The position numbers and the translations under genes were made by a program. Shown in pieces: positions 17,935 to 56,509 of a stretch of DNA of 64,000 bases (its first letter is position 1; the number at the start of each line of letters is the position of its first letter). The notes under the pieces were generated by a model. That model did not search any database and was not told where the DNA came from. It was given only the letters and a program-made list of their open reading frames with translations. This stretch comes from a virus (Duplodnaviria; Caudoviricetes). Location: positions 236,537-300,536 of IMG/VR virus record IMGVR_UViG_3300007171_000004; one strand, given 5' to 3'.

Positions 17935-19755
<1,821 letters not shown>

Positions 19756-21253: not shown

Positions 21254-21284
21254 AAAAAAGGGGAGATTCATTCTCCCCTTTTTT
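21254..21284. terminator. Bidirectional intrinsic terminator
   Basis: aaaaaaggggag-attcatt-ctcccctttttt. Confidence 0.8.
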
Positions 21285-22611
21285 ATAATCCATAACGGGA
21301 TTTTGTTAAGTTGTAATAAGCTAGAATTTCTGATGATGATAAAGCTCGGTTATAAATTCTTAATTGCGATATGTTTCCTGCAAAAGTTTCTGAAATGTAA
21401 CTATTACCGCCAACAAAAACATTATTTGTTGTGACTGGATTCGAATTTAAACTTGAAAGATTTTCAGTTGTAGAAGAATTATTTAGACTAAATGTTATTA
21501 CTGGATTTGAAATTGTACCAGATACACTTATAGCTGCAAAATTCCATGTATTATTTGTTATAGAACCCAAATTTTTATTTTGATAACTTCCAGCAGATAA
21601 ACTAGTATAATAAGTTACTATATTATTATCAACTCTAAATAGAGAAATCAAATATCCTCCACCAGTACTAGAATAATTTGCATATAGTGTTGAATATTGT
21701 TTTGTTGAAGTTTGATAAAACCAACAAATTATAGTAACATTTATTTGAAGAGTTCTTAAATATGTATTGTTACCTAGACTTATATAATCATTTGTTCCAT
21801 CAAAAACCCATGTTCCGCCGTTGCTTGAACTAAAAGATACACCGTTTGTTAAAGCTCCATTATTATTATAAATTGAAAGATCATTTGCTAAAGTCGAAGA
21901 GGGCTCACTAAAACTATAAGGATTACCAGCATCTAGAACTAGTACAGCAGAATCGTTAGAGAATGGGTAGCTATAAGTTACTTGTTTAAAATGAAGAAGA
22001 TTTGTGGAAGATATAAATTTCTCTACAACGCCAACAATTAAAATTTCTTGAGCAATGGAATTAACATTAACTTTAACCAATTTTCCAGCATTGACACCAG
22101 AACCGAAAGTGAGTAAATCTCCAGAATTAAAATCTATTTGTGTAGTGTAATCTAAACCATAATCACCATGCAAAACTCTAACAAACTGATCTGTAATGAA
22201 AATATTGTTAGGTTGATTATAAACAGCCAATCCTCTACGTGAAATAACCATGTTTTCTGATGGATTATAGGGCTTATTCAAAGATTCATTAAGATTATCA
22301 TTCAAAGCTCTTTTTGTTGTTAAAACTTCATTATTTTCAGTGCGTATAAAACTGTAAGAGCTATCAATATAACTTGAACCAATAACATCTGGAACTATTA
22401 TTGTGTTTGCAGCAGAAGAATGATCAGATGTAGCAAAACCTAAGAACTTTCCAATTTTTTGAGATAATGTTTTTTGGAATATTAAAGAATTATCAGCTTT
22501 AACCACTCTTCCATTATCATCTCTCATAAGTGCCATTCCAGCTTTAAAATCAACATCAACAAAGATATCAACATTTTCTACTGCATTTGAAGTTACTGTA
22601 AAGATTGCCAT
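21283..22611 (-). CDS. Decoration/fibre-like protein with C-terminal LamG (ConA-like) domain, paralog 5
   Basis: Shared ~210-aa N-domain; FDGTNDY..QLRIYNRALS..SRYGL. Confidence 0.8.
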   Translation of the reverse strand: MAIFTVTSNAVENVDIFVDVDFKAGMALMRDDNGRVVKADNSLIFQKTLSQKIGKFLGFATSDHSSAANTIIVPDVIGSSYIDSSYSFIRTENNEVLTTKRALNDNLNESLNKPYNPSENMVISRRGLAVYNQPNNIFITDQFVRVLHGDYGLDYTTQIDFNSGDLLTFGSGVNAGKLVKVNVNSIAQEILIVGVVEKFISSTNLLHFKQVTYSYPFSNDSAVLVLDAGNPYSFSEPSSTLANDLSIYNNNGALTNGVSFSSSNGGTWVFDGTNDYISLGNNTYLRTLQINVTIICWFYQTSTKQYSTLYANYSSTGGGYLISLFRVDNNIVTYYTSLSAGSYQNKNLGSITNNTWNFAAISVSGTISNPVITFSLNNSSTTENLSSLNSNPVTTNNVFVGGNSYISETFAGNISQLRIYNRALSSSEILAYYNLTKSRYGL

Positions 22612-23909
22612 TATAAACCATACCTAGATTTTGTTAAGTTGTAATATGCCGAAATTTGATCGAGTGTAAGAGCCGTAAAGTAAATTCTCATTTCAGATAA
22701 ATACATTCGAGCGTAAGAATGCGGGCTTGTTTTAACACTTCTAGCACCAATTCCAAGATCTTCATTGTTTGAACCCATATCCCCAGTAGTTGCAACTATA
22801 TTTGTCAAAGAGTTATTTATATAAGCCTTTTGATTTGTTTTATCATATGTTACAGTAATTAGTTTCCAAGCTGAAGAATCCATAGGCGCAATACTTCTCC
22901 ATTGCCAAGCTGGAAGATAAGCATAATCGAATGAATTACTATAATATCCAGTTTCATATATATTTTCTTTATTTAGGATAATATTTCCACCTAAAGAATC
23001 AGTAGGAAATCCATCAATTTTCACCCATGTCATTGTAGTAAGTTGTCTTGTTCCTGGATTTAAGCTTGGGCTGTCTAAGACTCTTATGTAATCATTTGTT
23101 CCATCAAAATAAAAAGAACCGCCTCCAAAACTACTATAAGATACTCCATTATATAAAACTCCATTGTTATTATTTGGGGTTAAATCATATACAGTGTTTC
23201 CAGAAATGTATGAATAAGGATTTGCAGCATCTATGGCAAATTGTAAGTTATTAGATTGAAATGTTACTAAATATGGGGCCTGTCTAAAATGAAGAAGATT
23301 AGAAGTTGAGATAAATTTTTCTACAATGCCAACAATTAAAACATCTGGGCCAATAGAATTCACATTTATCTTTACAAGTTTTCCAGCATTTATTCCAGAT
23401 CCAAAAGTTAGCAAATCTCCAGCATTAAAATCTATTTGTGCTGTTGAGTCTACTCCAAAATCTCCATGTAATACTCTTGAAAATTGATCCGTTATGAAGA
23501 TGTTGTTTGGTTGATTGTATACTGCTAATCCTCTTCTAGATGTTGTTAATGTTTCTGAAGGATTATAGATTTTGATGTTAGTTTCATCTTGGTTATCATT
23601 TAAGGCTCTTTTTGCTAATATTACTTCATTATTTTCAGTTCTAATATAATTGTAAGAATTGTCAATATAACTAGATCCAATTATATCTGGAACAATGATT
23701 GTATTTGAAGCTGAGGAATGATCACTGGAAGCAAAACCCAAGAACTTGCCGATTTTTTGTTCATTTGTTTTATAGAGTAGTAAACTATTATCAGCAGGAA
23801 CAGCTCTACCGTTATCATCTCTCATTAACGCCATACCAGACTTGAAAGATGATGAATAGAATATATCTACATTTAATACTTCGTTAGATGTTACGGTGAA
23901 AATAGCCAT
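22611..23909 (-). CDS. LamG-domain decoration/fibre-like protein, paralog 4
   Basis: As above; YFDGTNDY..MRIYFTALT. Confidence 0.8.
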   Translation of the reverse strand: MAIFTVTSNEVLNVDIFYSSSFKSGMALMRDDNGRAVPADNSLLLYKTNEQKIGKFLGFASSDHSSASNTIIVPDIIGSSYIDNSYNYIRTENNEVILAKRALNDNQDETNIKIYNPSETLTTSRRGLAVYNQPNNIFITDQFSRVLHGDFGVDSTAQIDFNAGDLLTFGSGINAGKLVKINVNSIGPDVLIVGIVEKFISTSNLLHFRQAPYLVTFQSNNLQFAIDAANPYSYISGNTVYDLTPNNNNGVLYNGVSYSSFGGGSFYFDGTNDYIRVLDSPSLNPGTRQLTTMTWVKIDGFPTDSLGGNIILNKENIYETGYYSNSFDYAYLPAWQWRSIAPMDSSAWKLITVTYDKTNQKAYINNSLTNIVATTGDMGSNNEDLGIGARSVKTSPHSYARMYLSEMRIYFTALTLDQISAYYNLTKSRYGL

Positions 23910-25198
23910 TATAAACCATATCGGGATTTGTTAAGGTTGTATTGATTTAAAACTTCTTGAGATGATAATACTTTAGTATAAATTTTTAAGTATCCAAAAG
24001 AAGATCTTGTTCTTTCATTATTAAATTGATTCGTAGCAGATGCTAAAGCGAACGCTGTCAGTGTATTATTTACTAATGATGAAGAATAAATGGAGACTCC
24101 ATTTACAAAAATTTGATGTGCTGCAGCATTTTTTACCAATGTAATATGCGTATATTGTCCCAATAATAAAGTGTATGATGTATTGATCCAACCTGATCCT
24201 TGCACATATAAATGTATATTATTTAAAGGATAAACTCCACCTGTCCCAAGAGCTATGATTGCTGAATTTCCGTCTCCATCAAATATCCTGTTAAGTGCTA
24301 GTTGCCCAGTAAGTTGATATACATTTACAAACATTTCTAAAGTATAATTAGAAATAGAAAATCCAGAAGAAGAACTAGAGTCATCAGCACCATCAAAAAC
24401 AATTTCACCATTATAAGCGCTTGTATATGAGACTCCATTCAAAAGAGTCATATTGTAGTTATTTGAAGCTAAATTATACCAAGTACTCCCTGTTTTTGGA
24501 TATGATAAGAGATTAGCAGCATCATAGTTTAATAAAGTAAAATTTCCAAAGCTTAAGCTAAAACTTACTTGTCTAAAATGTAATAGATTTGTTGATGATA
24601 CATATTTTTCAACAATACCCACAATCAATAATTCAGGGCCAAAAGAATTAACATTTACCTTAACAAGTTTCCCGGCATTAACTCCACCACCAAAAGTAAG
24701 TAAATCACCAGGGTTTAATGCAACAGTGTCTAATCCATCAAGGCCATAATCTCCATGTAAAACAGGCTTAAATTGATCTGTTATGAAGATATTATTAGGT
24801 TGGTTATATACTGCAAGGCCACGTCTCGAAATTATATTTTTATCAGATGGATTATATAAATTTGGAATTCCCTCATTTAAATTATCAACTAGCCCTCTCT
24901 TAGAAATTACAACCTCATTATTTTCAGTTCTTATGTAGTTGTAAGAATTATCAATATAACTTGATCCAATGACATCTGGAATAATTATAGTGTTTGAATA
25001 AGCTGAATGATCGCTTGTTGCAAAACCTAAGAATTTACCAACTTTTTGTTCGAGAGTTTTAAATACTAACAATTGACTATCTGCTGGAACTCCTCTACCA
25101 TTATCATCCCTCATTAAAGCCATACCAGCCTTAAATGATGTAGAAATCATGATGTCTACATTTTCAACAGCATTAGAAGTTACAGTAAATATAGCCAT
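23909..25198 (-). CDS. LamG-domain decoration/fibre-like protein, paralog 3
   Basis: As above; VFDGADD..LKIYTKVLS. Confidence 0.8.
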   Translation of the reverse strand: MAIFTVTSNAVENVDIMISTSFKAGMALMRDDNGRGVPADSQLLVFKTLEQKVGKFLGFATSDHSAYSNTIIIPDVIGSSYIDNSYNYIRTENNEVVISKRGLVDNLNEGIPNLYNPSDKNIISRRGLAVYNQPNNIFITDQFKPVLHGDYGLDGLDTVALNPGDLLTFGGGVNAGKLVKVNVNSFGPELLIVGIVEKYVSSTNLLHFRQVSFSLSFGNFTLLNYDAANLLSYPKTGSTWYNLASNNYNMTLLNGVSYTSAYNGEIVFDGADDSSSSSGFSISNYTLEMFVNVYQLTGQLALNRIFDGDGNSAIIALGTGGVYPLNNIHLYVQGSGWINTSYTLLLGQYTHITLVKNAAAHQIFVNGVSIYSSSLVNNTLTAFALASATNQFNNERTRSSFGYLKIYTKVLSSQEVLNQYNLNKSRYGL

Positions 25199-26508
25199 TA
25201 AGATACAAGCCTTGGATAAATAGCATTATGATTTCTTTGAGCTTGTTCTGCTGTAAATCCAGTGTTATAGAATCTTACTGCAGCGATTTTTCCAGCTGTT
25301 TGCCAAGATGCCCATACAGTAATTTGAATTTCATGAGTATTTGTATAGTTATTTGGGTTATATATAGAATCATCAAAAATACCATTAATATAAGATGTCA
25401 TTACGCCAGCAGTTCTTGTAAATATGATAGAATACCAAGTGTTAATATATACAGGTCTTTTTCCTCTTAAGAAAATTCCACTTGGTGTTGTCAGTGGGTT
25501 CCAGAAAATCGGATTACCTGCGAACCATGATCCAATTACCCAAGAGTTTCCAGAAGGTACGCCACCAGTATTTGCCTTAGCTAAAATACCAGTAAGAAAA
25601 CCCTCTAATGCATAAAAAACAATTTCAACTGTAAAATCTCCTGAAAAATCCATAATTGCATTGTGTGGAATTGTCAAACGGTCATCAATTGTATCAAGAA
25701 CAATTACTCCCCCGTTTTCAGCCGACCAAAAAGCTCCATTATTCATAGAACCATTTAAGTTATTTCCACTCAAGTCATACCAAGTTGTGCCAGTTCCAGG
25801 ATAAGATACTGGACTGGAAGCATCTAAATTCAAATAAAGCCCTGTTGTAGCAATCGAAACTGTATTACTATAAGTTTCTAAAATATGCCTAAAATAAAGA
25901 ACTTTTGAGGCAGAATCATGCTTTTCTACAGAGCCTATAATAATTACTGAAGGACCATTGCCAGATAAATCAGCTTTTACTAATTTACCAGCATTAACAC
26001 CAGCTCCAAATGTTAAAAGATCTCCTGGAGAAAGAATTACATCTACATTTGAATCTTCTGCAACAGCCATGGCTAATTTTGTTGCAAATTGGTCTGTGAT
26101 ATAAATTTCTCCTTGGAGATTATATACGCCAGTACCCCTTATGGTTTCTGGATTGTTATTGGATATTTGATAAAAATTATTTACATTCTCATCTCTGTAA
26201 TCTAAAATAGATCTTTTAGGAGCAGCATAAGGAGCATTTGTATTATCGTAAAATGCTGAATCAATATTGTAATTACTGCCTACTGGATCGTTATTAATAA
26301 TTGTGCTAGTAGTTGAGTGATCATTAGAAGAAAATCCAATAAATTTGCTTCTTTGTTCTGCTAAGCTATCAAAACTGAAAGAAGCTCTATCAGCTAAAAC
26401 AGCTCGTCCATTATTATCAAACATAAGAGCAGAACCAGCTTTAAAGTCAGTTGAAATTGACACTGGAATATTTACTACGTACTTATTGAAAAGAGGAAAG
26501 ATTGCCAT
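25198..26508 (-). CDS. LamG-domain decoration/fibre-like protein, paralog 2
   Basis: MAIFPL subgroup; LDASSPVSYPGTGTTWYDLSGN. Confidence 0.8.
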   Translation of the reverse strand: MAIFPLFNKYVVNIPVSISTDFKAGSALMFDNNGRAVLADRASFSFDSLAEQRSKFIGFSSNDHSTTSTIINNDPVGSNYNIDSAFYDNTNAPYAAPKRSILDYRDENVNNFYQISNNNPETIRGTGVYNLQGEIYITDQFATKLAMAVAEDSNVDVILSPGDLLTFGAGVNAGKLVKADLSGNGPSVIIIGSVEKHDSASKVLYFRHILETYSNTVSIATTGLYLNLDASSPVSYPGTGTTWYDLSGNNLNGSMNNGAFWSAENGGVIVLDTIDDRLTIPHNAIMDFSGDFTVEIVFYALEGFLTGILAKANTGGVPSGNSWVIGSWFAGNPIFWNPLTTPSGIFLRGKRPVYINTWYSIIFTRTAGVMTSYINGIFDDSIYNPNNYTNTHEIQITVWASWQTAGKIAAVRFYNTGFTAEQAQRNHNAIYPRLVS

Positions 26509-27806
26509 TAAATTAATTTACCCATACTTGCATTATAATTTTGTCTTACTTGTTCTGCTGTCATACCTTGGGAATATAAGCGTACAAATGGAGTTTTCAA
26601 TTTTGACCATAAACCATAAGAGTCCCAAGATCCAATAACAAAACCAGTGGAAGTATTTAAGCTTAAACTGTTATTAAAAGAAAATCTCAAAGTACCATTA
26701 TAATAACAATTGATAACACCACTATTACGAGTTACAATTACATGGTTATACTTAGTAAAAGAATTTTCTCCACCCCATTGATCTAAAGCTGGGGGATACC
26801 AAGATCCACTATATCTGATTAAAAACCACATAGAATTGCCACCAGTTGCAGACAATACCCAGTTAGCCTCTGCGTCTGAACTTCTTCTATGTAACCAACC
26901 TCCGCCTCCAACTTGTTTAATCAATGCTCCTTCAATGGTAAAATCTCCAGGAAAATCTAATAGTGAATTATCTGCTACAAGGGCTTGGTCATTAGTCCCG
27001 TCAAATGTCATTACACCACCATTTTCGCTTGACCAAAGTACACCATTCTGGAGTTCAGCATTCAATCCATTACCACTCAAATCATACCAAGTAGTTCCTG
27101 ACCCTGAATATGATGTAGGATTGCTTGCGTCTAAATGAACTGTGATACCTGTTGTAAATAACGACACTGTATTATTGTAACTTTCTAATACATGTCTAAA
27201 ATACAATAAATTACTGGCTGCATCAAACTTCTCAACTACTCCAATAATCAATACAGAAGGACTAATAGCTGAAGTATCTGCCTTTACTAATTTTCCAGCA
27301 TTGATTCCAGCTCCATAAGTAAGTAAATCACCAACATTAAAATCTACTTGAGCTGTACCATCAGAATCAATAAATAAACTTGCAACTCTTGAAAATTGGT
27401 CTGTAATATAAATTTCGCCTTGAAGATTGTAAATTCCAATGCCTCTTTTAGAATATTCGGAAAATAATACTCCAGAAACTGATTCGTCTCTAAATTCATA
27501 AATAGATCTTTTACTTGCAGAATAATGAGAATTAACATTATCTACAAATTTATTATCAGATGAAATATAATTACTGCCTACAGGATCAGACATTAAAATA
27601 GAAGATAAATTAGTGTGATCTCCTGAAGCAAAACCTAGAAATTTACCAGATCCTTCAACGATTGAATTATAACTAATATTACTTCTGTCCGCTTTAACAG
27701 CATTACCATTTGAATCAATAACAAGCGCCATACCAGAAGTAAAGCTCTCATTAGCAATTACTGGGAAATTTACTGCATGTTTATTATATAGAGGAAAAAT
27801 TGCCAT
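26508..27806 (-). CDS. LamG-domain decoration/fibre-like protein, paralog 1
   Basis: MAIFPL subgroup; LDASNPTSYSGSGTTWYDLSGN. Confidence 0.8.
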   Translation of the reverse strand: MAIFPLYNKHAVNFPVIANESFTSGMALVIDSNGNAVKADRSNISYNSIVEGSGKFLGFASGDHTNLSSILMSDPVGSNYISSDNKFVDNVNSHYSASKRSIYEFRDESVSGVLFSEYSKRGIGIYNLQGEIYITDQFSRVASLFIDSDGTAQVDFNVGDLLTYGAGINAGKLVKADTSAISPSVLIIGVVEKFDAASNLLYFRHVLESYNNTVSLFTTGITVHLDASNPTSYSGSGTTWYDLSGNGLNAELQNGVLWSSENGGVMTFDGTNDQALVADNSLLDFPGDFTIEGALIKQVGGGGWLHRRSSDAEANWVLSATGGNSMWFLIRYSGSWYPPALDQWGGENSFTKYNHVIVTRNSGVINCYYNGTLRFSFNNSLSLNTSTGFVIGSWDSYGLWSKLKTPFVRLYSQGMTAEQVRQNYNASMGKLI

Positions 27807-30900: not shown

Positions 30901-31233
30901 GGAAAAGGATTAGGATACAATGATGATGACACTGATGAAGAAAGACTGCAGAAATTAAAAAGACAAAAACAAATATTTGAACTTTACACTGCATTCTCAA
31001 ATATGATGCCAGATGAGTATTCTGTTTATGTTGGTGGTGGATATTCCAAAGTTGATCTTGAAGAATTAGCTGATGAAGATAAAGTAGAGCAAGAATTTGA
31101 TTATAAAGCGTCAATACCTAGAAAAAATTATGTATTAGACACTGATAGAAATCGTATAATAATTGACGACGATAAAATTTATTCTGATGCATATAAGCAA
31201 TTTAGAATTTTAAGGAGTAATAATAGTGAATAA
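27904..31233 (+). CDS. Large helical protein with C-terminal PcfJ-like/GNAT-fold domain
   Basis: 1109 aa; LGKHTDCCQSPGDAGE..FFVVE..IIAQSWVW..IVFDNIE; domain call from memory of the motif. Confidence 0.55.
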   Translation: MKRLSQEEEIQVPPQEVQITPEEREAWFQNSIPLLEKYQVPQEYYPYYRQLANISASERLYTIAVNNWGKYIDQIKNGLDTPEDYQAIQILRKNPGFNNFPQERIKDYIRFLQNYPDLYEKYNWSFYQSIMENPNFFQDDNKQLLLSRFFYFGSSHPKKQIDDAINFIERISAYPEIFNYLVDESNEKYEITKTYLDFCNKYPDQVDFFAQGLRRFKFINSFYNFINQFAENNSINFKEAREAFELIDNETSKLTAYNIKKVKENLKTPEDIETFNKVTRRFFDGTLATPYERDLRESSSKEEYGFFSNVDQHREIDSLIFLAKTTIGKGAANLPDGKLYIYLGGMYKDALNQLIKVYYFYKNNGNLSDEEIIEKCNDLKLFDESGASNISIQKVLSNNQDYQNIVLQKSGLSHLKNDGNLDFLKDFYYIFTYLNQDTIQKILQEISHKLNITLTSDNVELIKSQFNLIQPRIISLLQAKDTLSRTFIPNSFIKDFLNFFFNKYPYHYSNILKSLIDNIQQIPTEKFSPRYFDELVIKYIKSDLKYSRFDDFEGDILDYVSLYETGNTYLNKLDLSDEQIEKIKQLYDQYSKEFRFPKSTLINLAILEVTQGVELSGEFAKNFKNHDLLDKISDTIFESKNKNPKDIEFILNKFSNLVTPYFLVAIANSLKYKTQRFIEQIKSLPLEIMLCLILDGDDVELFELDDSEARDYINKFDRQYRNLHKNTREYFVVLCFTITYKNLFGMPSNLMISGINNDIDKDGSYEVIEQSTDAYSFLLLIFGKNITNWLRKFNDPHDAVQGFNIDFNWPRSEKAFGDYLLKATLGYKNLSTFPTQKIKMIQNYWLELTEEEKQLPFAQLYSVCDVKNFKKIHSEYDVKSDKFASEYQSAAMKSGFEPLQEHYLNSLNVPLPSWSNVVISKGGYTGRFLPRSDARGIFLGKHTDCCQSPGDAGEGAALYGQIEPTSAFFVVENKKGQIIAQSWVWEDVSKKIIVFDNIEGKGLGYNDDDTDEERLQKLKRQKQIFELYTAFSNMMPDEYSVYVGGGYSKVDLEELADEDKVEQEFDYKASIPRKNYVLDTDRNRIIIDDDKIYSDAYKQFRILRSNNSE

Positions 31234-31585
31234 AAAAATAATGATTCTATTATCTGTAAGTTTCTTGTTAATGGGAAGTTATGTAGAAAAAACAAAATCT
31301 TTGGAATTTAGTGGACAACGATATTTTAAGATTGTTGATACTAATGGAAGATTCGATAAAGTACAAGAACGATTCAATGCCTTATGTTTGAGATATGGTG
31401 TTAAAAGCTCTGATGTTTCTGAAGCAAAAGTAAATGGAAATTGGTGTGTAGTTGTTGGAGATAAAGTTCTTGTAACTGTAACAAATGCAGATTCCAAACT
31501 ACATAAAACTTCACATGAAAAATTAGCTAAAATATGGGCAAAAAACGTAGCAAAACATATTGAATCTGTAACACCATTAAATTAA
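31226..31585 (+). CDS. Exported small protein
   Basis: Signal peptide MNKKIMILLSVSFLL; VLVTVTNADSK..LAKIWAKN. Confidence 0.7.
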   Translation: MNKKIMILLSVSFLLMGSYVEKTKSLEFSGQRYFKIVDTNGRFDKVQERFNALCLRYGVKSSDVSEAKVNGNWCVVVGDKVLVTVTNADSKLHKTSHEKLAKIWAKNVAKHIESVTPLN

Positions 31586-31606: not shown

Positions 31607-31635
31607 AAAAAGGAGCCTATTTCTAGGCTCCTTTT
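31607..31635. terminator. Bidirectional intrinsic terminator
   Basis: aaaaggagccta-tttc-taggctcctttt. Confidence 0.85.
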
Positions 31636-31640
31636 ATTTG

Positions 31641-32609
31641 TTATCTTACTGGAAAACCAGCCTGGTCTAGAATCTGTTGTCCTGTTGGGTAATAACTCTT
31701 ACCCCAGAGGAAGTTGTTTGGATTAATAGTTGCTTCAAAACGATGAAACTTTGCATGTCCATCAGCAAATACATAATTAGAACCACCTGTATGACGACCT
31801 GGCTCCATGAACCGAATATGCAGTCCGCCATCAGCTGCAACGGATCTACATCCACCAGTACCATTTTGTGCACTAGAATCAGATGGTCCACCCCAGCCCT
31901 CAGCTCCTTCTGCAGCAGCCTTAGTAATAGCAAAGATTGATCCTGACGCATCCGCAAAACTTTGTCCTGCCCATTGACCGCCAGAAACTGTACGCATTAT
32001 GGCATTTGTTGGTCGGTGAGACTTGTTTCTTCGTTCAGTATTGAGTTGGCCAGTTGAACCTAAAAAGATACAATTTAAGTGATTAGTTGCTTCTGCAATG
32101 GCAATAACATCAGCTGGAGCATCAATTGCAGCGATAGGAACAACGTTTGGAGCATCTTGAGGGCCACGCTTACGAGGAAGAACAGCCGAATTAGGAACAT
32201 AGGAAAGACGAGGAACCTGAGCTTCGCATCCAAGGGTATTTACATCTGTCCAAGGCATACAAGGAGGATTGTCTGGACCTACTCCACCGTTCTTATCAGA
32301 TGGACATACCCAAACTTTGTCACTCTTGATATATGGCTGTACCATTGCAGAATAATGAATATATCCACCAGCTGATCCGCCATTAGTCGTTGCGGTGTTG
32401 TTCTTGTACATGTATGCAGTCGGATAGGTTTCATCATAATCCTGAGTGTACATCATAAGACCAATTCCAATTTGCTTCTCATTCGACAAACAACTTGCCG
32501 ATCGGGCCTTCTCACGAGCCTGGGCAAACACTGGGAAGAGGATAGCTGCCAAAATCGCAATAATAGCAATGACAACTAAGAGTTCAATTAAAGTAAAAGC
32601 TTTTTTCAT
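31641..32609 (-). CDS. Prepilin-type N-terminal cleavage/methylation protein with DUF1559-like and H-X9-DG domains
   Basis: [51 protein letters not shown]; [16 protein letters not shown]. Confidence 0.92.
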
Positions 32610-32732
32610 ATTTTTTGACCTTTCGCTTTGCGCTAATATAATATTCCACGTAAATAATCATAAAATATTAAGTGATTGTTAAGAAACTTATTTTTGCAAG
32701 AACTATTCAAAAATTTCTTAAAAATTATAACT

Positions 32733-34285: not shown

Positions 34286-34654
34286 TCACTCAGTTACACA
34301 ATAAGATATACAAACAGTTGGCTCCCAGAAAGATTGCAAATATCGTACCTTTACAGAATTAACATATCTAGTAGTGTCATTAGGAACAATTTTTGCTCTT
34401 ACTAATAAATCTACAATAGGTTTTATCAAATTGTCAGAGTCGTGTTTCATCTTCCAATTCATATCTGCCATAACTAAAATTTCTACATCAACTGGAAATG
34501 AATCAGCTGGCAACATAGATTCAACAATTATTGGTAAATTCTTATCTATCCATTCTCTATATTTTTTACTTTTAATTAATTTGCCATAAGCTACTGGAGT
34601 GTACATCTTATTTGCTGAAAATGGATGTGTAATAGTACAATACTTCTTAAGCAT
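34286..34654 (-). CDS. Second RusA-like resolvase
   Basis: PFSANKMY, KHDSDNLIKPIVDLLVRAKIVPNDT. Confidence 0.75.
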   Translation of the reverse strand: MLKKYCTITHPFSANKMYTPVAYGKLIKSKKYREWIDKNLPIIVESMLPADSFPVDVEILVMADMNWKMKHDSDNLIKPIVDLLVRAKIVPNDTTRYVNSVKVRYLQSFWEPTVCISYCVTE

Positions 34655-34702
34655 ATATTTCTTTTACAGGGATATAGGAGTAAAATCGGTAAAATTAAAA
34701 TC

Positions 34703-36388
34703 ATGTGGTATCGAATATCTAATCAATTACAATTACCTGAAACTGATGTCCCTCAAAATCCTGTAGAACCAGAAGTCCAGGAAGAAGAGCAAGAGCAACC
34801 TCAGCTTTTAGAAACAGAAAAACCAACGCAAAGCTTATTTTTTAGTGAATGGGCTAAGGATCATTATGTTCCAACTCAACCTGTTTATCATGGGACGACT
34901 CACGACTTTGACGAATTTCAAATTATCAACACTGGAGATAATTCTTTAGGTGATGGTTTCTATTTCACTAGTGAAGACAAAGAAGCTGAAAAATTCTATA
35001 CAGGAAAAGGCGGAGATCAACTGCGACAAATTGATCGAATCGCCACAGATTTTGCTGATTCATATTATGGCAACGATGATGAACTATTTGAATTGTTTGG
35101 TGATAAATATCCAGAATGTTTCCAAGATGGCGAAGTTAAAGATGCTTATGAATTAGGTGAAAAAATTGGATCTGATCGAATTCTTGGAGGAAAACCTAAA
35201 GTAATTCCAGCTCATATTAGAATGAAAAATCCATTTGTCTTAACTCAAATGAATCCTAACTTTCCTTACAGCCCAACTATGTTTTATGATGATTTCCAAG
35301 AAGAAGAAATTCCAGAAGCTGATGGGGATGATGGATATGACCCTGAAAATAATGAATCGCCAGAAAAATTAATTATTGAAAAAGATGGAGAGAAAAAATA
35401 TTCTTTCAAAACATTAATTCACAAACTCTATGATATTTTATTAGAATATTATGAAGATTATAATGCTTATGAATTTATTAACCAAGTAATATTAGATAAT
35501 GCAAACCCTGGTGCAGATATCAACGCAATGCATATTTTCCAATCTATAACAAATCAAACTGAATATTTCAAACATCAATATGAAGATGATTACCATAGCG
35601 AAATAGTAAAAAAACTTATGGAATCTTTAGGTTTTGACAGCATTATCCAAGACCCAAAGGCATTCTGGCCATCTAATGAATATGAACCAGGAACACAACA
35701 TTATTTCTTATGGAAGCCTGAGAACATTAAACACGCTAGAGAAAATATTGAATTTAATCCTGATAGCAGAAAAATTTATTCAGCCTATATGTTTAATCCA
35801 GAAGGTCAAGGTGTTTTAGATTTAGGCATCAAGCTAAAATATGACCCATCTAATTATGAAGCTAGAATTGAGAAAGAAAGAAATGACAAGAATTCTCACA
35901 TGCTAGATATTGGAGCTTATATTAAAGGTACAAATATCAAACTAGGACAGATTGATTTATTTTGTGATAAATCAGTTCCACCTGAAGAAAGATATGTAGA
36001 TGTTGAATTAGTTTTAGTCTATGATAATAATAAAAGTTTTAAACAACAACTAAGACAACAATATAATCCACTTGAAATAGATGAATTTAGTGGATCAAGA
36101 GTTAAATGGGGTATTGGAGAATTTCTTTATAACGCTGCAAGAAAATTGATCCAAGAAAAAATGCCTGAAGTGAAATATATTGCTGGTAATATTCATAGTA
36201 AAGAAGCATTCAAAGCAAGAAATAAAGCGTTCGGTGATCCTTTAGAAATAAAAGATGTTAATACAGACACTAATGTTTCTCAATTAGATGCTCAAAAACA
36301 AATTCCATATATGGTTTTTGATGAATATACAGAACAACCAGAATTTCGAACAGATGACGCATTTTGGGTAAAACATAATGTGGTATAA
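34703..36388 (+). CDS. MWY-leader protein: ADP-ribosyltransferase-like domain plus C-terminal GNAT-like domain
   Basis: VYHGTTHDFDEF, LGDGFYFT, PAHIRMKNPF, LGFDSII, YFLWKPENIK; KWGIGEFLY. Confidence 0.7.
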   Translation: MWYRISNQLQLPETDVPQNPVEPEVQEEEQEQPQLLETEKPTQSLFFSEWAKDHYVPTQPVYHGTTHDFDEFQIINTGDNSLGDGFYFTSEDKEAEKFYTGKGGDQLRQIDRIATDFADSYYGNDDELFELFGDKYPECFQDGEVKDAYELGEKIGSDRILGGKPKVIPAHIRMKNPFVLTQMNPNFPYSPTMFYDDFQEEEIPEADGDDGYDPENNESPEKLIIEKDGEKKYSFKTLIHKLYDILLEYYEDYNAYEFINQVILDNANPGADINAMHIFQSITNQTEYFKHQYEDDYHSEIVKKLMESLGFDSIIQDPKAFWPSNEYEPGTQHYFLWKPENIKHARENIEFNPDSRKIYSAYMFNPEGQGVLDLGIKLKYDPSNYEARIEKERNDKNSHMLDIGAYIKGTNIKLGQIDLFCDKSVPPEERYVDVELVLVYDNNKSFKQQLRQQYNPLEIDEFSGSRVKWGIGEFLYNAARKLIQEKMPEVKYIAGNIHSKEAFKARNKAFGDPLEIKDVNTDTNVSQLDAQKQIPYMVFDEYTEQPEFRTDDAFWVKHNVV

Positions 36389-49779: not shown

Positions 49780-50040
49780 TTACAGTTCGATATTGATGTA
49801 AGATACACCGATTAAGTTATGGATAGAATATTCTTTCCAGTTCTTAAGAAGGGTCTCTGCAAACTCATGTCCTTCCAGAGCCTTTTTGATAGCATCTGAG
49901 AACTTGTTCGTCCTTACCAGAGTATAAGTGGTTTTATCATCACCGTATGTAAACTCATCAAGGACATCGTTGCAAACATCTGTGTCAAGTTCCAGAGTGT
50001 AAAAGATGTCTGATGCATCTGCGAATGTTACCTGTCTCAT
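49780..50040 (-). CDS. Single-gene cassette, hypothetical protein
   Basis: RBS aaggagg; promoter TTGCAT-16-TATTAT 50065-50092; terminator ~49749-49776. Confidence 0.8.
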   Translation of the reverse strand: MRQVTFADASDIFYTLELDTDVCNDVLDEFTYGDDKTTYTLVRTNKFSDAIKKALEGHEFAETLLKNWKEYSIHNLIGVSYINIEL

Positions 50041-50114
50041 GTCAACCTCCTTGGTTACAGGTTAATAATATCATAAATGATTTGTGATGCAATGGGTATT
50101 TTAAACTATTTTTT

Positions 50115-50170
50115 ATTATTTAAATCATTCCTTCGGGGGGTTAACCCCCCGACGACTGGAAACAAATAAT
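50115..50170. repeat. 56-bp symmetric element, copy 5
   Basis: Core at 50133-50152. Confidence 0.95.
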
Positions 50171-50222
50171 AAATTTTAGATTGACAAAAGCAAAAAAAAG
50201 CCCCCGTTTCAGGGGGGGCTTG

Positions 50223-50942
50223 CTACGCCATCGGCAGAATCTTTAATGCCTTTTTAATCTTTTTATCTGTTCCAGTATCAGGGGCGAACAGAATCACAAG
50301 TTTACGGCGGTGGAGGTGCTTATCCTGCATACAAAGCCCGCAGGACTTGCAAGAGTCGGTTTTCTTGACCTGATAGGGACAAGGGATACCAGTAAAGCCG
50401 TTTCCAAGGTTCACAGGGCGATGTGATTCGTGTTTAGTAGGAACGACCAGACTACAGGCATAACCACGGTCATGCTCTACTTGTAACTGTTCCACGGATT
50501 CGCACGAACGCAGAATACTAACATCGCCCCAAACATTACGGGGAACATCCAATGCATGGGTGTATGTCCAAACCCGTTTGCCGGAACGCTTTATATAAGC
50601 ATTATACGCTTCTGATACAATCCGGGCGGCTTCCACGGTTTTACAATCACCGACAACATGACCCCGCAGGTCATACTTGCCTTTAAGACGGTTCACGGCA
50701 TCCGCTTCAAAACGGGCTATCTGTTCCGGTGTAAACATTCCAATGGACTGTGCTAGGTTCAATCGTTTTGTTGTAATACCTGCATGACCTGTTTCGGCAT
50801 AACATCCTGCATTATAGAAGGAACAGTTAGATGGGCATGAACCTTGACTTGCCCAAGTAGCGGACACCGTTTTGTCGGTGGAAAGTTTACGGTCGGCAGA
50901 CCGCTCTACGGCAATGGCTGGGGCTGTGTATGTGTAACTCAT
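50223..50942 (-). CDS. Cys-rich GP88-like phage protein (single-gene cassette)
   Basis: SCPSNCSFYNAGCYA, RGHVVGD, WTYTH, CP..SCKSCGLC; promoter 50949-50976; terminator ~50191-50221. Confidence 0.6.
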   Translation of the reverse strand: MSYTYTAPAIAVERSADRKLSTDKTVSATWASQGSCPSNCSFYNAGCYAETGHAGITTKRLNLAQSIGMFTPEQIARFEADAVNRLKGKYDLRGHVVGDCKTVEAARIVSEAYNAYIKRSGKRVWTYTHALDVPRNVWGDVSILRSCESVEQLQVEHDRGYACSLVVPTKHESHRPVNLGNGFTGIPCPYQVKKTDSCKSCGLCMQDKHLHRRKLVILFAPDTGTDKKIKKALKILPMA

Positions 50943-50997
50943 GACATCATTATATCGACATTATATAAAAATACAATGGCATTTTGAACTATTTTTT

Positions 50998-51053
50998 ATT
51001 ATTTAAAACATTCCTTCGGGGGGTTAACCCCCCGACGACTGGAAACAAATAAT
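50998..51053. repeat. 56-bp symmetric element, copy 6
   Basis: Core at 51016-51035; within 99-bp repeat 50974-51072. Confidence 0.95.
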
Positions 51054-51115
51054 GTTTTTCAGATTGACAAATGCCAAAAAATGCCCCCCATTTCTGGAGG
51101 GCTGGTTGGTTGATT

Positions 51116-51481
51116 TTAGAACAACCGGGAATATGGTTTGGTTGCCAATGCACCGTCTGGTATGGCAATGCTGTAGTGGTTGCTAAGTTTACCGAACAGG
51201 TTTGGGAGGCTCTTGTGGAGGTGTGCAAAGGCGAATGTCTTGCCCTTGGAGGTTACCTTCATCGATACGTGAACACGGTTCAGAGCGTCAACGTAAAGGT
51301 GAACATCGACCTCAGAAGAGCGGAAAACGACATATTCGTTGCTGTCCACCTTCTCAGATACACGCTCATAGGACGCAGGGAGAGACTCTGCAAGCGTATT
51401 AATGAAGGCATCCAAAGCACGGGGCATGGACACAGGGGCGACATTGAGGAATGGTTCGGAGACAAAGTTTACGGTTTTCAT
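51116..51481 (-). CDS. High-GC cassette hypothetical protein
   Basis: RBS aagga; terminator ~51076-51102. Confidence 0.7.
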   Translation of the reverse strand: MKTVNFVSEPFLNVAPVSMPRALDAFINTLAESLPASYERVSEKVDSNEYVVFRSSEVDVHLYVDALNRVHVSMKVTSKGKTFAFAHLHKSLPNLFGKLSNHYSIAIPDGALATKPYSRLF

Positions 51482-51530
51482 TGGTTATCCTTTCAAAGCC
51501 CCCTGTAGTGACCTACAAGGGGCATATAGA

Positions 51531-51845
51531 CTATTCTGCGATGGTCTTTCCGGTGTTATCGGCAATAAGAGCATTGAAGAAGAATGTCTCTGCCTTGATA
51601 CGGGCATCCAAGAGCATGACAGACTTTTCAAGGAATCTTACAGATTCAATCTTGTCCTGAAGAATCAGTGTCATGTGAGCGTTACGGGTTGTTTCGTTGG
51701 TTCCGAAACCTTTGTACTCTTCGGACGCTTGAATCTTTGCCTCAGAGAGCAGGAGGTCAAGTTTAGCGTCCATGAGAAGGGACGTAGCCCCTGCCTTTTC
51801 GGTGAGCAGGTCTTTGAGAGTGGTTGCGATGGTCGTAGTGTTCAT
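51531..51845 (-). CDS. High-GC cassette coiled-coil protein
   Basis: RBS ggag; promoter TTGCAA-17-TATACT 51885-51913. Confidence 0.75.
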   Translation of the reverse strand: MNTTTIATTLKDLLTEKAGATSLLMDAKLDLLLSEAKIQASEEYKGFGTNETTRNAHMTLILQDKIESVRFLEKSVMLLDARIKAETFFFNALIADNTGKTIAE

Positions 51846-51934
51846 ACGGTTCTCCGGTCAGTGTAGCCCGATTGCTACAGGAACAGTATAGGAAATATTT
51901 AATGACATTGCAATGGCATTTTGAACTATTTTTT

Positions 51935-51990
51935 ATTATTTAAAACATTCCTTCGGGGGGTTAACCCCCCGACGACTGGAAACAAATAAT
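51935..51990. repeat. 56-bp symmetric element, copy 7
   Basis: Core at 51953-51972; within 99-bp repeat 51911-52009. Confidence 0.95.
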
Positions 51991-52040
51991 GTTTTTCAGA
52001 TTGACAAATTATAAAAATAGGGGTAGTTAACCCCTATTAA

Positions 52041-52334
52041 TTAATAAATAATGTTAAGGAATTTAGTCTTAACACAACGTCCTTCTTTATTAAGAAATTG
52101 TGCAATTCTCAGGATATTTACAATATCATAACCGTTGCCAGTATCACAACATAAATTATATGCATCATAAAGGTTACCTTCAAGAATCTGCCCAACAAAT
52201 CCGTGATAACGCAAGCGGGATGCATTTTCGTTATCCATGAAAGCTTGGAAATCTTCGATTATGTTTGCGATAGGATAATAAGTTTCACTTACAGGCTTGC
52301 CCATAAACATCAGTACAGTTTCTGTCATCATCAA
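52041..52334 (-). CDS. Single-gene cassette, hypothetical protein
   Basis: RBS aaggag; extended -10 TGaTATAAT; terminator ~52016-52038. Confidence 0.75.
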   Translation of the reverse strand: MMMTETVLMFMGKPVSETYYPIANIIEDFQAFMDNENASRLRYHGFVGQILEGNLYDAYNLCCDTGNGYDIVNILRIAQFLNKEGRCVKTKFLNIIY

Positions 52335-52388
52335 ACTCCTTACATGAATATTATATCAAAAAGTACAATGAATTTCTGACTTTTATTT

Positions 52389-52445
52389 ATTATTTATATC
52401 TTTCTGTCGGGGGGGTTAACCCCCCGAGGACTGGAAACAAATAAT
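52389..52445. repeat. Symmetric element, copy 8 (G7 variant)
   Basis: Core at 52407-52427. Confidence 0.95.
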
Positions 52446-52507
52446 GAAAAATAGTTTAAAAAATGGCAAAAAATCCCCCCATTTCTGGGGGGAATGTGGT
52501 AGGGAGG

Positions 52508-53836
52508 TTAGACCCCTACCATCTGATACTTTGCAACGATGTTCTCCGGGAGAGAGGAGGCACTATCGGAGAGCGTTCCCCAACGCTTCTGTATCGCCTT
52601 CAGGTCTGCATCAATGGACGGTGCAAGGATGATGCTTGCGGTCGTTTCCATCTGTTCACGGAGAACACCGGAGAATGCTTGCGCCCCTCTTGTGAGACCG
52701 TTTACAAGACCGAATGCCGTTTCGTGGGCAATGTCTCCAGATGGTTCCTGAAGCGTCTCCAGATAACCTTGCGACCATGCACGACCCTGCTCTATGGTCA
52801 TCTTGTTGTCACGGGCTACCTTAGCGATAACCTGCTGTACATTCTTGACCTTGACCTGTTGGGTGAGGTTCATCAGGGTGAGAATGGCGTTGCCTTCAGA
52901 CAACGCCAGAATAACAGCCTCCCGAACCTGTAGACGGATGTTGTCCTTGTCGATGGTTCCAAGGTGCTTTTGGTTGATGGCAATCTCAGAGTTACGCCGT
53001 CCCCATATCATGCCATTGAGACAGATGGCACGGAACAGGAATGGAGAAATCTTGAATGCACCGTTGCGAATCTCACTGTTGCGGAATGAGATGCCCACGC
53101 CGTAATCAGAATCAGGCTGTTGCTTGATGTAGTCTGGCAGGAGGATGTTGCCTTGAATATCATCTCCATTGTTGAAGAAATGGGATGCCAGAGCATCATT
53201 GAGGTTGCTACCAGATGGCAGAGCATCGGCGATAAACTCCAGAGCGTCAAGATTGTCCAATACACCGTACCGACCAGAGCAAACAGCACGAACAACAGGT
53301 GCATCACCCTCTTGACGGAGACGGAGACGAAAGTTCCGTGCGTCACGGTCACGCTCTCCATTGTTCCATTCGCTTTCACGCTTGGTAAGTTCGGCGTTGA
53401 AATACTTGGGAATGTCGGTCTCAAAACCTGCATTGACCAAGTAGGAAACAGTGGTGGAAGGAATCGGGGTGAAGGTGCGGAGGGATTCCAAACCGTCTGC
53501 GTTGATAGCCGTGCCATCGGTCAAGCGGTCATAGGATGCCAAGCGAACCTCAGACTCCAAGACAACCTTGTCGAACTTGCCTTCGTGTTGATTGCGAACA
53601 ACGGAGAGAGCATCTGACATAGGTGTACACTTGTCCTGCCATACCTTTGCTACATGGCGGTGGGTTGCGGATGATTCCAAGCCAATAGCATTCTTCCATG
53701 TGCCGTTAGCATCTTGCTTTGCAACGGAATCAGGGCGAACCTGCAAACCTGTCTCTGCACCGAAAACCTGCGTGTTAGGGGAGACTACAGGGACGTTGTC
53801 CCCAATCTCAAGGATACCGAATCTGTCTTTGTTCAT
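52508..53836 (-). CDS. DUF932-family protein (high-GC single-gene cassette)
   Basis: VRAVCSGRYGVLDN, GISFRNSE, FLFRAICLNGM, KHLG; RBS aggag; terminator ~52468-52493. Confidence 0.8.
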   Translation of the reverse strand: MNKDRFGILEIGDNVPVVSPNTQVFGAETGLQVRPDSVAKQDANGTWKNAIGLESSATHRHVAKVWQDKCTPMSDALSVVRNQHEGKFDKVVLESEVRLASYDRLTDGTAINADGLESLRTFTPIPSTTVSYLVNAGFETDIPKYFNAELTKRESEWNNGERDRDARNFRLRLRQEGDAPVVRAVCSGRYGVLDNLDALEFIADALPSGSNLNDALASHFFNNGDDIQGNILLPDYIKQQPDSDYGVGISFRNSEIRNGAFKISPFLFRAICLNGMIWGRRNSEIAINQKHLGTIDKDNIRLQVREAVILALSEGNAILTLMNLTQQVKVKNVQQVIAKVARDNKMTIEQGRAWSQGYLETLQEPSGDIAHETAFGLVNGLTRGAQAFSGVLREQMETTASIILAPSIDADLKAIQKRWGTLSDSASSLPENIVAKYQMVGV

Positions 53837-53930
53837 TCCAAAATCTCCTGTAGCGGTCGGCTACGAAAAGATTATATCGAACTGTCAAGGAAAAACAATA
53901 AAAAACTACGCTGATTTTGAACTATTTTTT

Positions 53931-53986
53931 ATTATTTGTTTCCAGCCTTCGGGGGGTTAACCCCCCGACAGAATGTTTTAAATAAT
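53931..53986. repeat. 56-bp symmetric element, copy 9 (inverted)
   Basis: Core at 53949-53968. Confidence 0.95.
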
Positions 53987-54101
53987 CTTTTTTAGTTTCA
54001 AATTGACAAAAAAAATATCTTTAAACCTTGTGATATTTAAATTTATATCCTACAATGTTGTATAGGATATTAATAATCATTTTTGAAAGCGGTGTGACTC
54101 T

Positions 54102-54624: not shown

Positions 54625-54696
54625 CAGCTCCAGTAAGAATCGAACTTACAATATGGCTTTAGAAGAGCCGTGTTATATCCATTTAACTATAGAGCC
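54625..54696 (-). tRNA. tRNA-Arg(TCT)
   Basis: Manual cloverleaf GGCTCTA/TGGAGCT, anticodon loop CTTCTAA, T-loop TTCGATT. Confidence 0.9.
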
Positions 54697-54717
54697 TTAA
54701 CTGACTATATTATACCA

Positions 54718-54864
54718 CTATTTTCCGTATTTGCTATTAATGTCATCAACCATTTTAATCAATTTATCAAGCCGTTTACAGAGATAATAATTTGCGACAA
54801 AGATAGGAATTGACATTATAATTCCTAATACCATTCCTCTGACAAGTGCTTCGAGTAAATTCAT
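54718..54864 (-). CDS. 48-aa membrane peptide
   Basis: Manual translation MNLLEALVRGMVLGIIMSIPIFVANYYL.. Confidence 0.4.
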   Translation of the reverse strand: MNLLEALVRGMVLGIIMSIPIFVANYYLCKRLDKLIKMVDDINSKYGK

Positions 54865-55011
54865 TTTTTTTAATCTTTCTTTTTGAGTGATTTATATTCT
54901 TTCAGGGTTTTTCGCAGCATATAGATTTGAAAGAATATTGGAACGTATAATAAAATAAATAAGACGATGAATATAGTATAGAGATTGTGTTTAATAAATT
55001 CCATGTCTCTA

Positions 55012-55299
55012 TTATATCACACATCTATTGAGACTGTCTTGTTCTTGGAAATATTTTGTTGCTTCTAATGCACATTTCCATCCAAACAATTTATCTTGGA
55101 CTTGATTAAAATTAAAACCTAAAGAGACAAAATCAATCCATTCATTTTCTGTGATATGATAAATGATTGTTACGAACCAATTATCTTCTGATGAATCGTA
55201 TCTGGAGTTTTGAGCCATATCGAAAAATAAAATAATAGAAGAGTTTTGATTAATTTCTTCTATTGTGTTTTTGATAACTTCGGCTTGTTCTTTAGTCAT
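55012..55299 (-). CDS. Hypothetical protein
   Basis: 95-aa ORF between tRNAs. Confidence 0.6.
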   Translation of the reverse strand: MTKEQAEVIKNTIEEINQNSSIILFFDMAQNSRYDSSEDNWFVTIIYHITENEWIDFVSLGFNFNQVQDKLFGWKCALEATKYFQEQDSLNRCVI

Positions 55300-55308
55300 A
55301 ATTTAAAA

Positions 55309-55379
55309 AGCTCCATAGACGAATCAAACGCCTACCTAATCTTTACAAGAGAACCGTACTATCTTTATACTAATGGAGC
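55309..55379 (-). tRNA. tRNA-Thr(TGT), atypical T-loop TTTGATT
   Basis: GCTCCAT/ATGGAGC acceptor, loop CTTGTAA. Confidence 0.8.
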
Positions 55380-55388
55380 AAAAAAAGG

Positions 55389-55459
55389 TTCCCAGACAAG
55401 GATTTGAACCTCGATAAACAGAGCCAAAATCTGCTGAATTGCCGTTATTCGATCTGGGA
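55389..55459 (-). tRNA. tRNA-Gln(TTG)
   Basis: TCCCAGA/TCTGGGA acceptor, loop TTTTGGC, T-loop TTCAAAT. Confidence 0.9.
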
Positions 55460-55479
55460 ACAATCAAACTAATTATACA

Positions 55480-56238
55480 TCAAAATTCTGGTTTATCAAG
55501 TTTACCAGATTTAATTTTTTCCCAATCACCTCTGCCTGGTTTTGTGATGTTATAGTATTTACACCATTTATTAACAGCATTATCACTAACACCAAACATT
55601 TCTCCAATTTTTATGCAAGGCATTTCCCATACGAGTTTTTCTAAAATTTCTTTGTCTGGTCTTTTAGATACTTTAATAACAGGTTGATAAAATTTTTCTG
55701 GCTGCACTTCTTTAACATATTTTGGAAATAATGTCTTTTGAGCAATAAAAATTTTTTCAGCATCGATAAGTCCGGCGTGTATTTCTCCATGGCAGTTAGA
55801 GCATACTAAAATACACTTGTCTAATTCATCAACAATTAAGTCAAATTTTCTAACATTAATTTCTCCTATATTGAATGATTTAGTTTCTGGATATACGTGA
55901 TGAAAATGTAAAGAGCCAATATACTTGTTATAACCACAAACTGAACAAGCTCCGCCTTTATATTCAATTGCTCTTTCTTTAGTTTTAGTTCTATAGATTA
56001 AACTATAACATCTACTACATTTATCTTTGTGCTTTCTGTGTCCACCTTGATATTTTCTTTCACAAATTTTACAAATCTTCATAACAACTCTTGTGTCATC
56101 ATTTTCTAAACTTCTTGTGTTATGTGATCCAAAAGGTGAACAGTCTAAACAATATTTTCTTTTATCAAATTTTCTTACTTTTCCATCTATGAACATACTA
56201 CATGGAATTTTATTGTTACACTTTAAACAATTTCTCAT
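55480..56238 (-). CDS. HNH homing endonuclease with Zn fingers and C-terminal HTH
   Basis: YKGGACSVCGY, LHFHHV, CILVCSNCHGEIH; lies inside tRNA cluster. Confidence 0.85.
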   Translation of the reverse strand: MRNCLKCNNKIPCSMFIDGKVRKFDKRKYCLDCSPFGSHNTRSLENDDTRVVMKICKICERKYQGGHRKHKDKCSRCYSLIYRTKTKERAIEYKGGACSVCGYNKYIGSLHFHHVYPETKSFNIGEINVRKFDLIVDELDKCILVCSNCHGEIHAGLIDAEKIFIAQKTLFPKYVKEVQPEKFYQPVIKVSKRPDKEILEKLVWEMPCIKIGEMFGVSDNAVNKWCKYYNITKPGRGDWEKIKSGKLDKPEF

Positions 56239-56333
56239 AATTTCTCTTAATGGTGTTCAGTTCGATTTGACACCAATTAAGTTATACATATAAAATTAAA
56301 AAAAACTCCTTTGAAATTAATCAAAAAAGTTTA

Positions 56334-56405
56334 TAGTCTGTAGGGGAATTGAACCCCTGACTCATCCGTGAAAGGGACGCATCTTAACCACTTGACCAAC
56401 AGACC
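56334..56405 (-). tRNA. tRNA-Glu(TTC)
   Basis: GGTCTGT/ACAGACT acceptor, loop CTTTCAC. Confidence 0.92.
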
Positions 56406-56436
56406 TCGAAATTTATTATATCTCGAAATTTTAAAA

Positions 56437-56509
56437 CTCCTCGGCCAAGATTCGAACTTGGGACATACAAGTTAACAGCTTGTCGCTACTACCACTGAGC
56501 TACCGAGGA
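56437..56509 (-). tRNA. tRNA-Asn(GTT)
   Basis: TCCTCGG/CCGAGGA acceptor, loop CTGTTAA, TTCGAAT. Confidence 0.92.

Follow-up and report, generated by a model that had tools for sequence, protein, structure and literature searches.

A prepilin-type DUF1559/H-X9-DG gene of Armatimonadota origin, preceded by Pho-box-like repeats, in large low-GC freshwater phages

The window analyzed here is a 64-kb stretch of an IMG/VR virus record that is itself 129,429 b long and 36% complete (CheckV). On its minus strand, at positions 31641 to 32609 (stop codon counted in), lies an intact ORF for a 322-aa prepilin-type DUF1559/H-X9-DG protein, assigned by Pfam and NCBIfam profiles; other genes of the window match PHROG phage families. 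The gene stands alone between plus-strand genes, with its own promoter region and terminator, and its GC is 0.440 versus 0.272 and 0.302 in the flanking genes, with a GC3 of 0.28 versus 0.14. This agrees with the first-pass annotation, which had described a stand-alone, higher-GC gene with an intact prepilin site (A-FTLIE); the strings that it quoted from the protein, QDYDE included, are all present. A ribosome-binding site read from the sequence, AAAGG, lies 9 nt before the ATG (32619 to 32623, minus strand), and AAAGG or AAGGA is found in most of the phage copies described below. Downstream, a hairpin terminator with a 12-bp stem and T-runs on both sides (31608 to 31635, assigned to neither strand) can serve both the pilin-like gene and the convergent gene at 31226 to 31585. 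Related phages carry their own versions of the hairpin at the same place, unlike the sequence downstream of the bacterial copies.

The N terminus of the protein, MKKA/FTLIELLVV, has the features of a prepilin: Ala at position −1, Phe at +1, and Glu at +5 (E9), followed by a hydrophobic stretch. The leader peptide MKKA (32598 to 32609, minus strand) is predicted, from the TIGR02532 match and Glu +5 (E9), to be cut by prepilin peptidase between A4 and F5. Position −1 is Ala instead of Gly, likewise in the bacterial orthologues; in three of these (G001 to G003) the leader is longer, at 10 residues, and again ends in Ala. Both TIGR02532 (31.7 bits, cutoff 16.3, residues 3 to 24) and the Pfam N_methyl family (PF07963; 30.3 bits, cutoff 21.2) were matched. 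The hydrophobic N-terminal helix of the type IV pilin class that follows the leader, residues 5 to 28 (32526 to 32597, minus strand), was delimited from the structural model and from sequence matches in the PDB (PilA, PilE, GspG, and geopilin), which are confined to this helix. DUF1559/SBP_bac_10 (PF07596) scored 38.8 bits (cutoff 23.3), with profile positions 2 to 62 only aligned, and the 322-aa protein aligned over its full length to at least 8,000 homologues. The H-X9-DG domain (TIGR04294; 31.9 bits, cutoff 19) covers residues 271 to 289, and its motif runs from H273 to D283-G284 (31758 to 31793, minus strand). Across 73 homologues there is no variation at D283 and next to none at G276, N278, and Y279.

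The NCBIfam search with the 322-aa protein returned no pilin or pseudopilin equivalog above its cutoff. The GspG equivalog, TIGR01710, was considered and rejected, at 30.6 bits against a cutoff of 88.85 and over residues 4 to 64 only. The AlphaFold2 model (pLDDT 94.5) consists of an N-terminal helix of about 50 residues (residues 7 to 57) and a globular domain, together a pilin fold with large inserts. In a VIA-wide search, in which all matches were weak (Z ≤ 5.2) because the domain bears large inserts, the top structural match was EpsG (Z 5.2), followed by PilV, ComP, PilA4, and PulG (Z 4.2). Foldseek matched the N-terminal helix alone in the PDB and found nothing in BFVD at an E value of ≤0.001. 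As modeled, the globular domain is without an informative structural match beyond the pilin fold. A search of the 129-kb phage record for a second prepilin motif found none.

Several other features of the window were recorded. Five tandem ORFs of 429 to 442 aa each occupy positions 21283 to 27806 on the minus strand, and the one examined has a C-terminal Laminin_G_3 (concanavalin-like) domain; homologues of the Laminin_G_3 type adjoin the pilin-like gene in the related phage contigs L096, L091, and L078, and the products of the array may be receptor binding. A 587-aa protein with an ART-PolyVal ADP-ribosyltransferase domain is encoded at 34625 to 36388 on the plus strand and is 39 to 68% conserved in related phages. 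Its gene lies beside a homologue of the ORF at 34286 to 34654 in L104, L010, and L007/L008, about 3 to 10 kb from the pilin-like gene. Finally, positions 50000 to 54000 form a block of 0.43 to 0.48 GC in a 0.33-GC genome, with ORFs matching DUF7227 and DUF932, and may be a foreign or mobile island.

The nearest cellular homologues of the pilin-like protein all belong to Armatimonadota. Copies in metagenome-assembled genomes (MAGs) of this phylum reach 80 to 83% amino acid identity, their GC (0.54 to 0.56) agrees with that of their flanks (0.54 to 0.58), and the flanking genes are bacterial. More remote named matches were found in Armatimonadaceae (76%), a Chthonomonadaceae-labelled MAG (73%), Armatimonas (72%), and Capsulimonadales (68%). 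Phage relatives comprise nine IMG/VR viral contigs with 82 to 91% identity, in which the gene has a GC of 0.40 to 0.44 and the flanks 0.30 to 0.33. A metagenome scan added 80 loci, 79 of them with low-GC flanks (0.28 to 0.39; one of the 79 is without flank sequence), and at all six of the loci where flanking ORFs were compared, homologues of genes of the window phage were present. Altogether at least 85 related phage contigs of low GC have the gene, always intact, and in contigs of 16 to 261 kb it is flanked on either side by phage genes. Overall, the GC of the bacterial copies is 0.54 to 0.65, matching their flanks, and that of the phage copies is 0.39 to 0.46 in flanks of 0.28 to 0.39. A tblastn search found no homologue among 50,697 GenBank phage records, and literature searches found neither a treatment of DUF1559 in any phage context nor a paper naming both Armatimonadetes and jumbo phages.

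The wording of the protein had been taken in the first-pass annotation as typical of an expanded Armatimonadota paralogue family, and the candidate-host MAGs do each contain 24 to 40 paralogue matches (E ≤ 1e−20). A full-length orthologue is present only once in each, with the runner-up paralogue reaching 56% identity across half the length. In trees, all phage copies and four copies of the MAG clade form one clade (99 to 100% support) that is nested among Armatimonadota orthologues. The window copy belongs to a phage-only subclade and is 82 to 83% identical to the sampled hosts, with no long exact match. These data show that the gene came from Armatimonadota and that it is the phage counterpart of a particular orthologue present there in single copy. 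There is strong support for Armatimonadota as the hosts of this clade of large freshwater phages with low GC.

Another gene of the window encodes a full-length DnaK/Hsp70 (17935 to 19752, minus strand; HSP70 E 7e−247; GC about 0.41). Identity is 77% with the DnaK proteins of the candidate-host MAG clade, 73 to 75% with those of other Armatimonadota, and 81% for the best database matches. These identities are consistent, weakly, with an Armatimonadota host.

Among the phage copies of the pilin-like gene, dN/dS is 0.04 to 0.15, with synonymous sites saturated (dS > 1) in most pairs. In related phages the gene is 82 to 91% identical to that of the window, versus 30 to 75% for neighboring genes. 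Columns conserved in the host were defined as those with at least 90% agreement in 25 bacterial orthologues and counted as kept when 90% or more of the 75 distinct phage copies retained them; by this measure, 151 of 153 are kept. Judged by these substitution patterns, the phage copies are shown to be under strong purifying selection.

The codon composition and the nucleotide sequences of the copies record exchange with the host. GC3 of phage-flanked copies ranges from 0.17 up to 0.57, the host value, and lies at 0.17 to 0.31 in most; the high-GC3 phage copies are mosaics. In contig L096, phage genes precede the pilin-like gene and a phage-type terminator follows it. Codons 1 to 45 of this copy are phage-like, and codons 76 to 322 are 96 to 100% identical in nucleotide sequence to the bacterial copy L100, including an exact match of 239 nt; the similarity ends at the stop codon. 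Patchwork copies were also found in L094, L091, L078, and L104. Contig L104 retains the synteny of the window (neighbors with 58 to 87% amino acid identity) yet carries the other allele class. The mosaics in L096, L094, L091, and L078, together with the allele swap in L104, show, at the nucleotide level, that host-to-phage gene conversion into the resident phage copy is ongoing and repeated. In the protein tree, a single phage clade was not rejected by the AU test (p = 0.099), and the case for repeated exchange is therefore carried by the nucleotide mosaics and the GC3 gradient. As far as sequence comparison reaches, this conversion is the strongest evidence for an Armatimonadota host. The suggestion of an Armatimonadota-like host made in the first-pass annotation is strongly supported: the closest cellular homologues, the nesting of the phage copies in the orthologue tree, and the 239-nt exact match all agree with it.

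A further regularity was noticed at the 3′ end of the gene. Over codons about 286 to 315 (window positions about 31665 to 31754), bacterial copies and several high-GC3 mosaic phage copies have 93 to 100% nucleotide identity, and exact matches of 44 to 54 nt recur at one spot. This segment may be a recombination anchor.

Upstream of the window gene, the sequence CTTAACA-ATCA-CTTAATA at 32666 to 32683 on the minus strand reads as a tandem pair of Pho-box-like direct repeats whose period is 11 bp. A degenerate third box at 32655 to 32661 is followed after 9 nt by the −10-like element TGGAATATTAT (32638 to 32648, minus strand), a putative promoter element. A related pattern, TTAATAT-N(12-26)-GGAATA, has a single match in the 64-kb window, which is the one upstream of the pilin-like gene, and YTTAAYR-N4-YTTAAYR has four matches in the 129-kb record, the boxes of the window gene being one of them. 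The layout is conserved upstream of the phage copies: CTTAAYA direct repeats with an 11-bp period are followed by a −10-like element of the GGAATAATA type. A regular expression combining the boxes with the GGAATAATA-type element matched 68 of 85 upstream regions (84 phage and 1 bacterial), and the succession of box, 9 nt, and −10 element is identical in the bacterial orthologue L151. Of 71 distinct regions upstream of phage copies, 24 contain the strict two-box pattern, 72 to 87 nt before the ATG, against a background of 3 matches in 955 kb of phage flanks; with the box spacing shifted by one base (N4 or N6), the pattern is found in 1 of 71. Scored differently, YTTAAYR-N4-YTTAAYR is perfect in 19 of 70 phage upstream regions (background, 0.03%), and 33 of 70 have a box score of at least 13/14, versus 0.26% of background windows.

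One more perfect tandem-box match in the window, TTTAATATCCTCTTAATA followed by GAGTATAAT, lies at 57343 to 57360 on the minus strand, upstream of a cluster of five tRNAs (Asn, Glu, Gln, Thr, and Arg; 54625 to 56509, minus strand). This match may mark a promoter of the Pho-box type, or it may have arisen by chance, the DNA being AT rich.

In their core, PyTTAAPy, and in their 11-bp period, the boxes agree with the cyanobacterial Pho box, PyTTAAPyPy(T/A); in that system the pstS gene of cyanophages is under the control of host PhoBR, and predictions of Pho boxes in phages have been flagged as unreliable (PMC10976474). The phosphate hypothesis led to a search for the boxes at pstS and other Armatimonadota genes. 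In five candidate-host MAGs (14.7 Mb), TTWAYA-N5-TTAAYA has only two perfect matches, both upstream of pstS, and the remaining two pstS genes of these MAGs have the pattern with one mismatch. The strict form, TTAAYA-N5-TTAAYA, has no match in the five MAGs. With one mismatch allowed, TTWAYA-N5-TTAAYA showed no enrichment over the reversed control in the closest host clade, G001 to G005, where sampled matches precede unrelated genes (PEPCK, cytochrome c peroxidase, and one T2SS-E ATPase) and the orthologues of the pilin-like gene have degenerate boxes of the CATAACA type. The lack of enrichment and the degenerate boxes mean that the evidence for a regulon in this clade lies with pstS.

More remote Armatimonadota provide further sites. 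Boxes are present upstream of bacterial orthologues in L151, with five in tandem, and in L145, L147, and L142 to L144, with fewer. Genomes G043, G012, and G030 contain the motif 14, 15, and 24 times, compared with 1, 2, and 2 times for the reversed control; no enrichment was detected in G032 or G020. Among the genes downstream of the sites are those for PhoU, a regulator of the OmpR/PhoB type, a PHO4/PiT transporter, a phosphate porin of the SLH-Porin_O_P type, and a PhoD-like phosphatase. Because boxes also precede a P-II gene and histidine kinase genes, the reach of the regulator could extend beyond Pho. Tandem CTTAAYA boxes likewise precede six or more other prepilin-like genes of the DUF1559 family (G012, G020, G030, and G043; loci L154, L170, L172, L176, L178, and L180), and part of the DUF1559 paralogue expansion may accordingly belong to the Pho regulon.

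The gene neighborhoods of the bacterial orthologues were compared as well. In three genomes the orthologue directly follows genes for LMWPc (ArsC type) and a MIP aquaglyceroporin (L011:4217-5810, L150:3-1183, and L151:7247-9299), to which a glyoxalase-family gene is added in one genome and a SAM methyltransferase in another. This arsenic-type module would fit a phosphate-arsenate link. In a fourth genome, an alkaline phosphatase gene lies 2 kb from the orthologue. MAG G001 carries a prepilin peptidase gene (A24_N_bact E 1.2e−31) and a T2SS-F gene 3 to 5 kb from the orthologue; across the bacterial genomes, pilus machinery is not a conserved part of the context. From these motifs and neighborhoods, CTTAAYA repeats with an 11-bp period are proposed as a candidate Pho-box consensus of Armatimonadota, and the phage gene appears to have its origin in a Pho-regulon gene of the host, with regulon membership read from the motifs. 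A search of the 129-kb record found no phoH/PhoH.

The explanation that we favor, to which we give about an even chance, is that the gene is a host-derived auxiliary gene under Pho control that sustains an envelope function of phosphate starvation. In a phosphorus-starved infected cell, a host PhoB-type regulator would turn on the phage promoter. The preprotein would be inserted in the inner membrane via its pilin helix and cleaved after Ala4 by the host prepilin peptidase, and the mature protein would act as a normal subunit of a host type IV filament or of machinery resembling type II secretion, or else as a periplasmic protein with a pilin anchor. A phosphate-scavenging function needed to copy a phage genome of about 300 to 360 kb would in this way be kept up or boosted. 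A type II secretion system is known to export a phosphate-binding protein induced by Pi limitation (PMC2225411). The retention of 151 of 153 columns, the dN/dS of 0.04 to 0.15, and the Pho-box-like promoter jointly point to an authentic subunit with a phosphate-stress function.

The same three observations bear on the proposal, made in the first-pass annotation, that the phage modifies or jams a pilus for superinfection exclusion, which they do not support. In its fuller form, this explanation holds that a surface filament used as a receptor by competitors or by the phage itself has its host subunit replaced or diluted by the phage copy, as happens with P-FimU of Pseudomonas prophages. It has a documented precedent: pilins encoded by phages, minor as well as major ones, are built into the host pilus and prevent adsorption, and virulent phages, too, carry PilA-like genes (PMC12952977). 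It would also suit a gene that is pilin-like and self-contained and that has five tandem, possibly receptor-binding genes of the Laminin_G_3 type 4 kb away. However, P-FimU is highly diverse and shaped by competition between phages (PMC12952977), whereas the present gene is among the most conserved nearby. A near-identical copy that is repeatedly reset to the host allele cannot mask a receptor, and the Pho-box promoter is left unexplained; we therefore regard exclusion or receptor masking as unlikely.

Supply of a spare subunit with no link to phosphate seems about equally improbable. Here the phage would need a host filament or secretion machine for egress, product delivery, or envelope remodeling, and the gene would replenish a limiting subunit with fast turnover after host transcription is shut down. 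In its favor, the gene resembles psbA in having a protein close to that of the host, ameliorated codons, and recombination with host copies inside the gene, but the box match with pstS, phoU, PiT, and phoD is unexplained by it, and the record holds a single prepilin motif in 129 kb. That the gene is instead a functionless recent passenger, or the result of a mis-binned or chimeric assembly, is very hard to credit: although its GC exceeds that of the flanks and some copies were recently acquired or converted, it is intact in all those related contigs, contigs of 16 to 261 kb have phage genes on either side of it, GC3 is ameliorated in most copies, purifying selection is strong, and a phage-type promoter and terminator flank the gene.

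The favored explanation, a Pho-controlled auxiliary gene, can be extended to the protein family, which numbers more than 200,000 cluster representatives. Tentatively, and with less confidence than for the single gene, DUF1559/H-X9-DG prepilins may include a phosphate-starvation-induced, pilin-anchored class that scavenges or imports phosphorus or exports enzymes that do so, and that was captured together with its Pho-box control by large phages of Armatimonadota. If true, this would define a new class of phage auxiliary metabolic gene. New in the present analysis, as seen in the sequences, are the mosaic evidence and the proposed Armatimonadota Pho box, with boxes common to phage copies and bacterial orthologues. 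An uncultured clade of huge freshwater phages is tied to Armatimonadota by DNA exchange at the nucleotide level. The candidate phosphate-starvation regulon offers a testable lead for DUF1559/H-X9-DG, one of the largest uncharacterized paralogue families in Armatimonadota and PVC bacteria. The pattern of psbA and pstS, namely a near-host protein, ameliorated codons, gene conversion, and what would be host-regulated expression, is extended to a pilin-like envelope protein.

Comparison with known systems places the gene among several precedents. It has the same three-part architecture as the cellular DUF1559/SBP_bac_10 H-X9-DG proteins of Armatimonadota and PVC bacteria, but is phage encoded and differs in its phage codon usage, its shorter leader (MKKA versus 10 residues), and its phage-type terminator. 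In Planctopirus, 68 DUF1559 paralogues are present, two of which are essential (PMC10632474). Cyanophage pstS and phoA under host PhoBR are likewise host-derived phosphate-starvation genes in lytic-type phages, with PyTTAAPy repeats at an 11-bp period (PMC10976474); here, the product is a pilin-like envelope protein, the host belongs to another phylum, and regulation is read from motifs alone. P-FimU and P-PilA (Sztanko et al., Cell Rep 2026, PMC12952977) are also phage-encoded proteins of the prepilin type that are expected to use host machinery, but the present protein has no FimU or PilA homology beyond the N-terminal helix and is conserved, with none of the competition-driven high diversity of P-FimU. 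GspG, EpsG, and PulG are closest in structural likeness and in N-terminal sequence match; the present protein is 2.5 times longer, has large inserts, and does not belong to the GspG family. Lastly, psbA of cyanophages is reportedly a host-like core gene with intragenic recombination between host and phage, as is said to have been described by Zeidner in 2005 and Sullivan in 2006. Function and host differ from those of the gene studied here, but recombination of the same kind is found in L096 and in the patchworks L094, L091, and L078, and the two genes share a near-host protein, phage-shifted codon usage, and host-identical mosaic segments.
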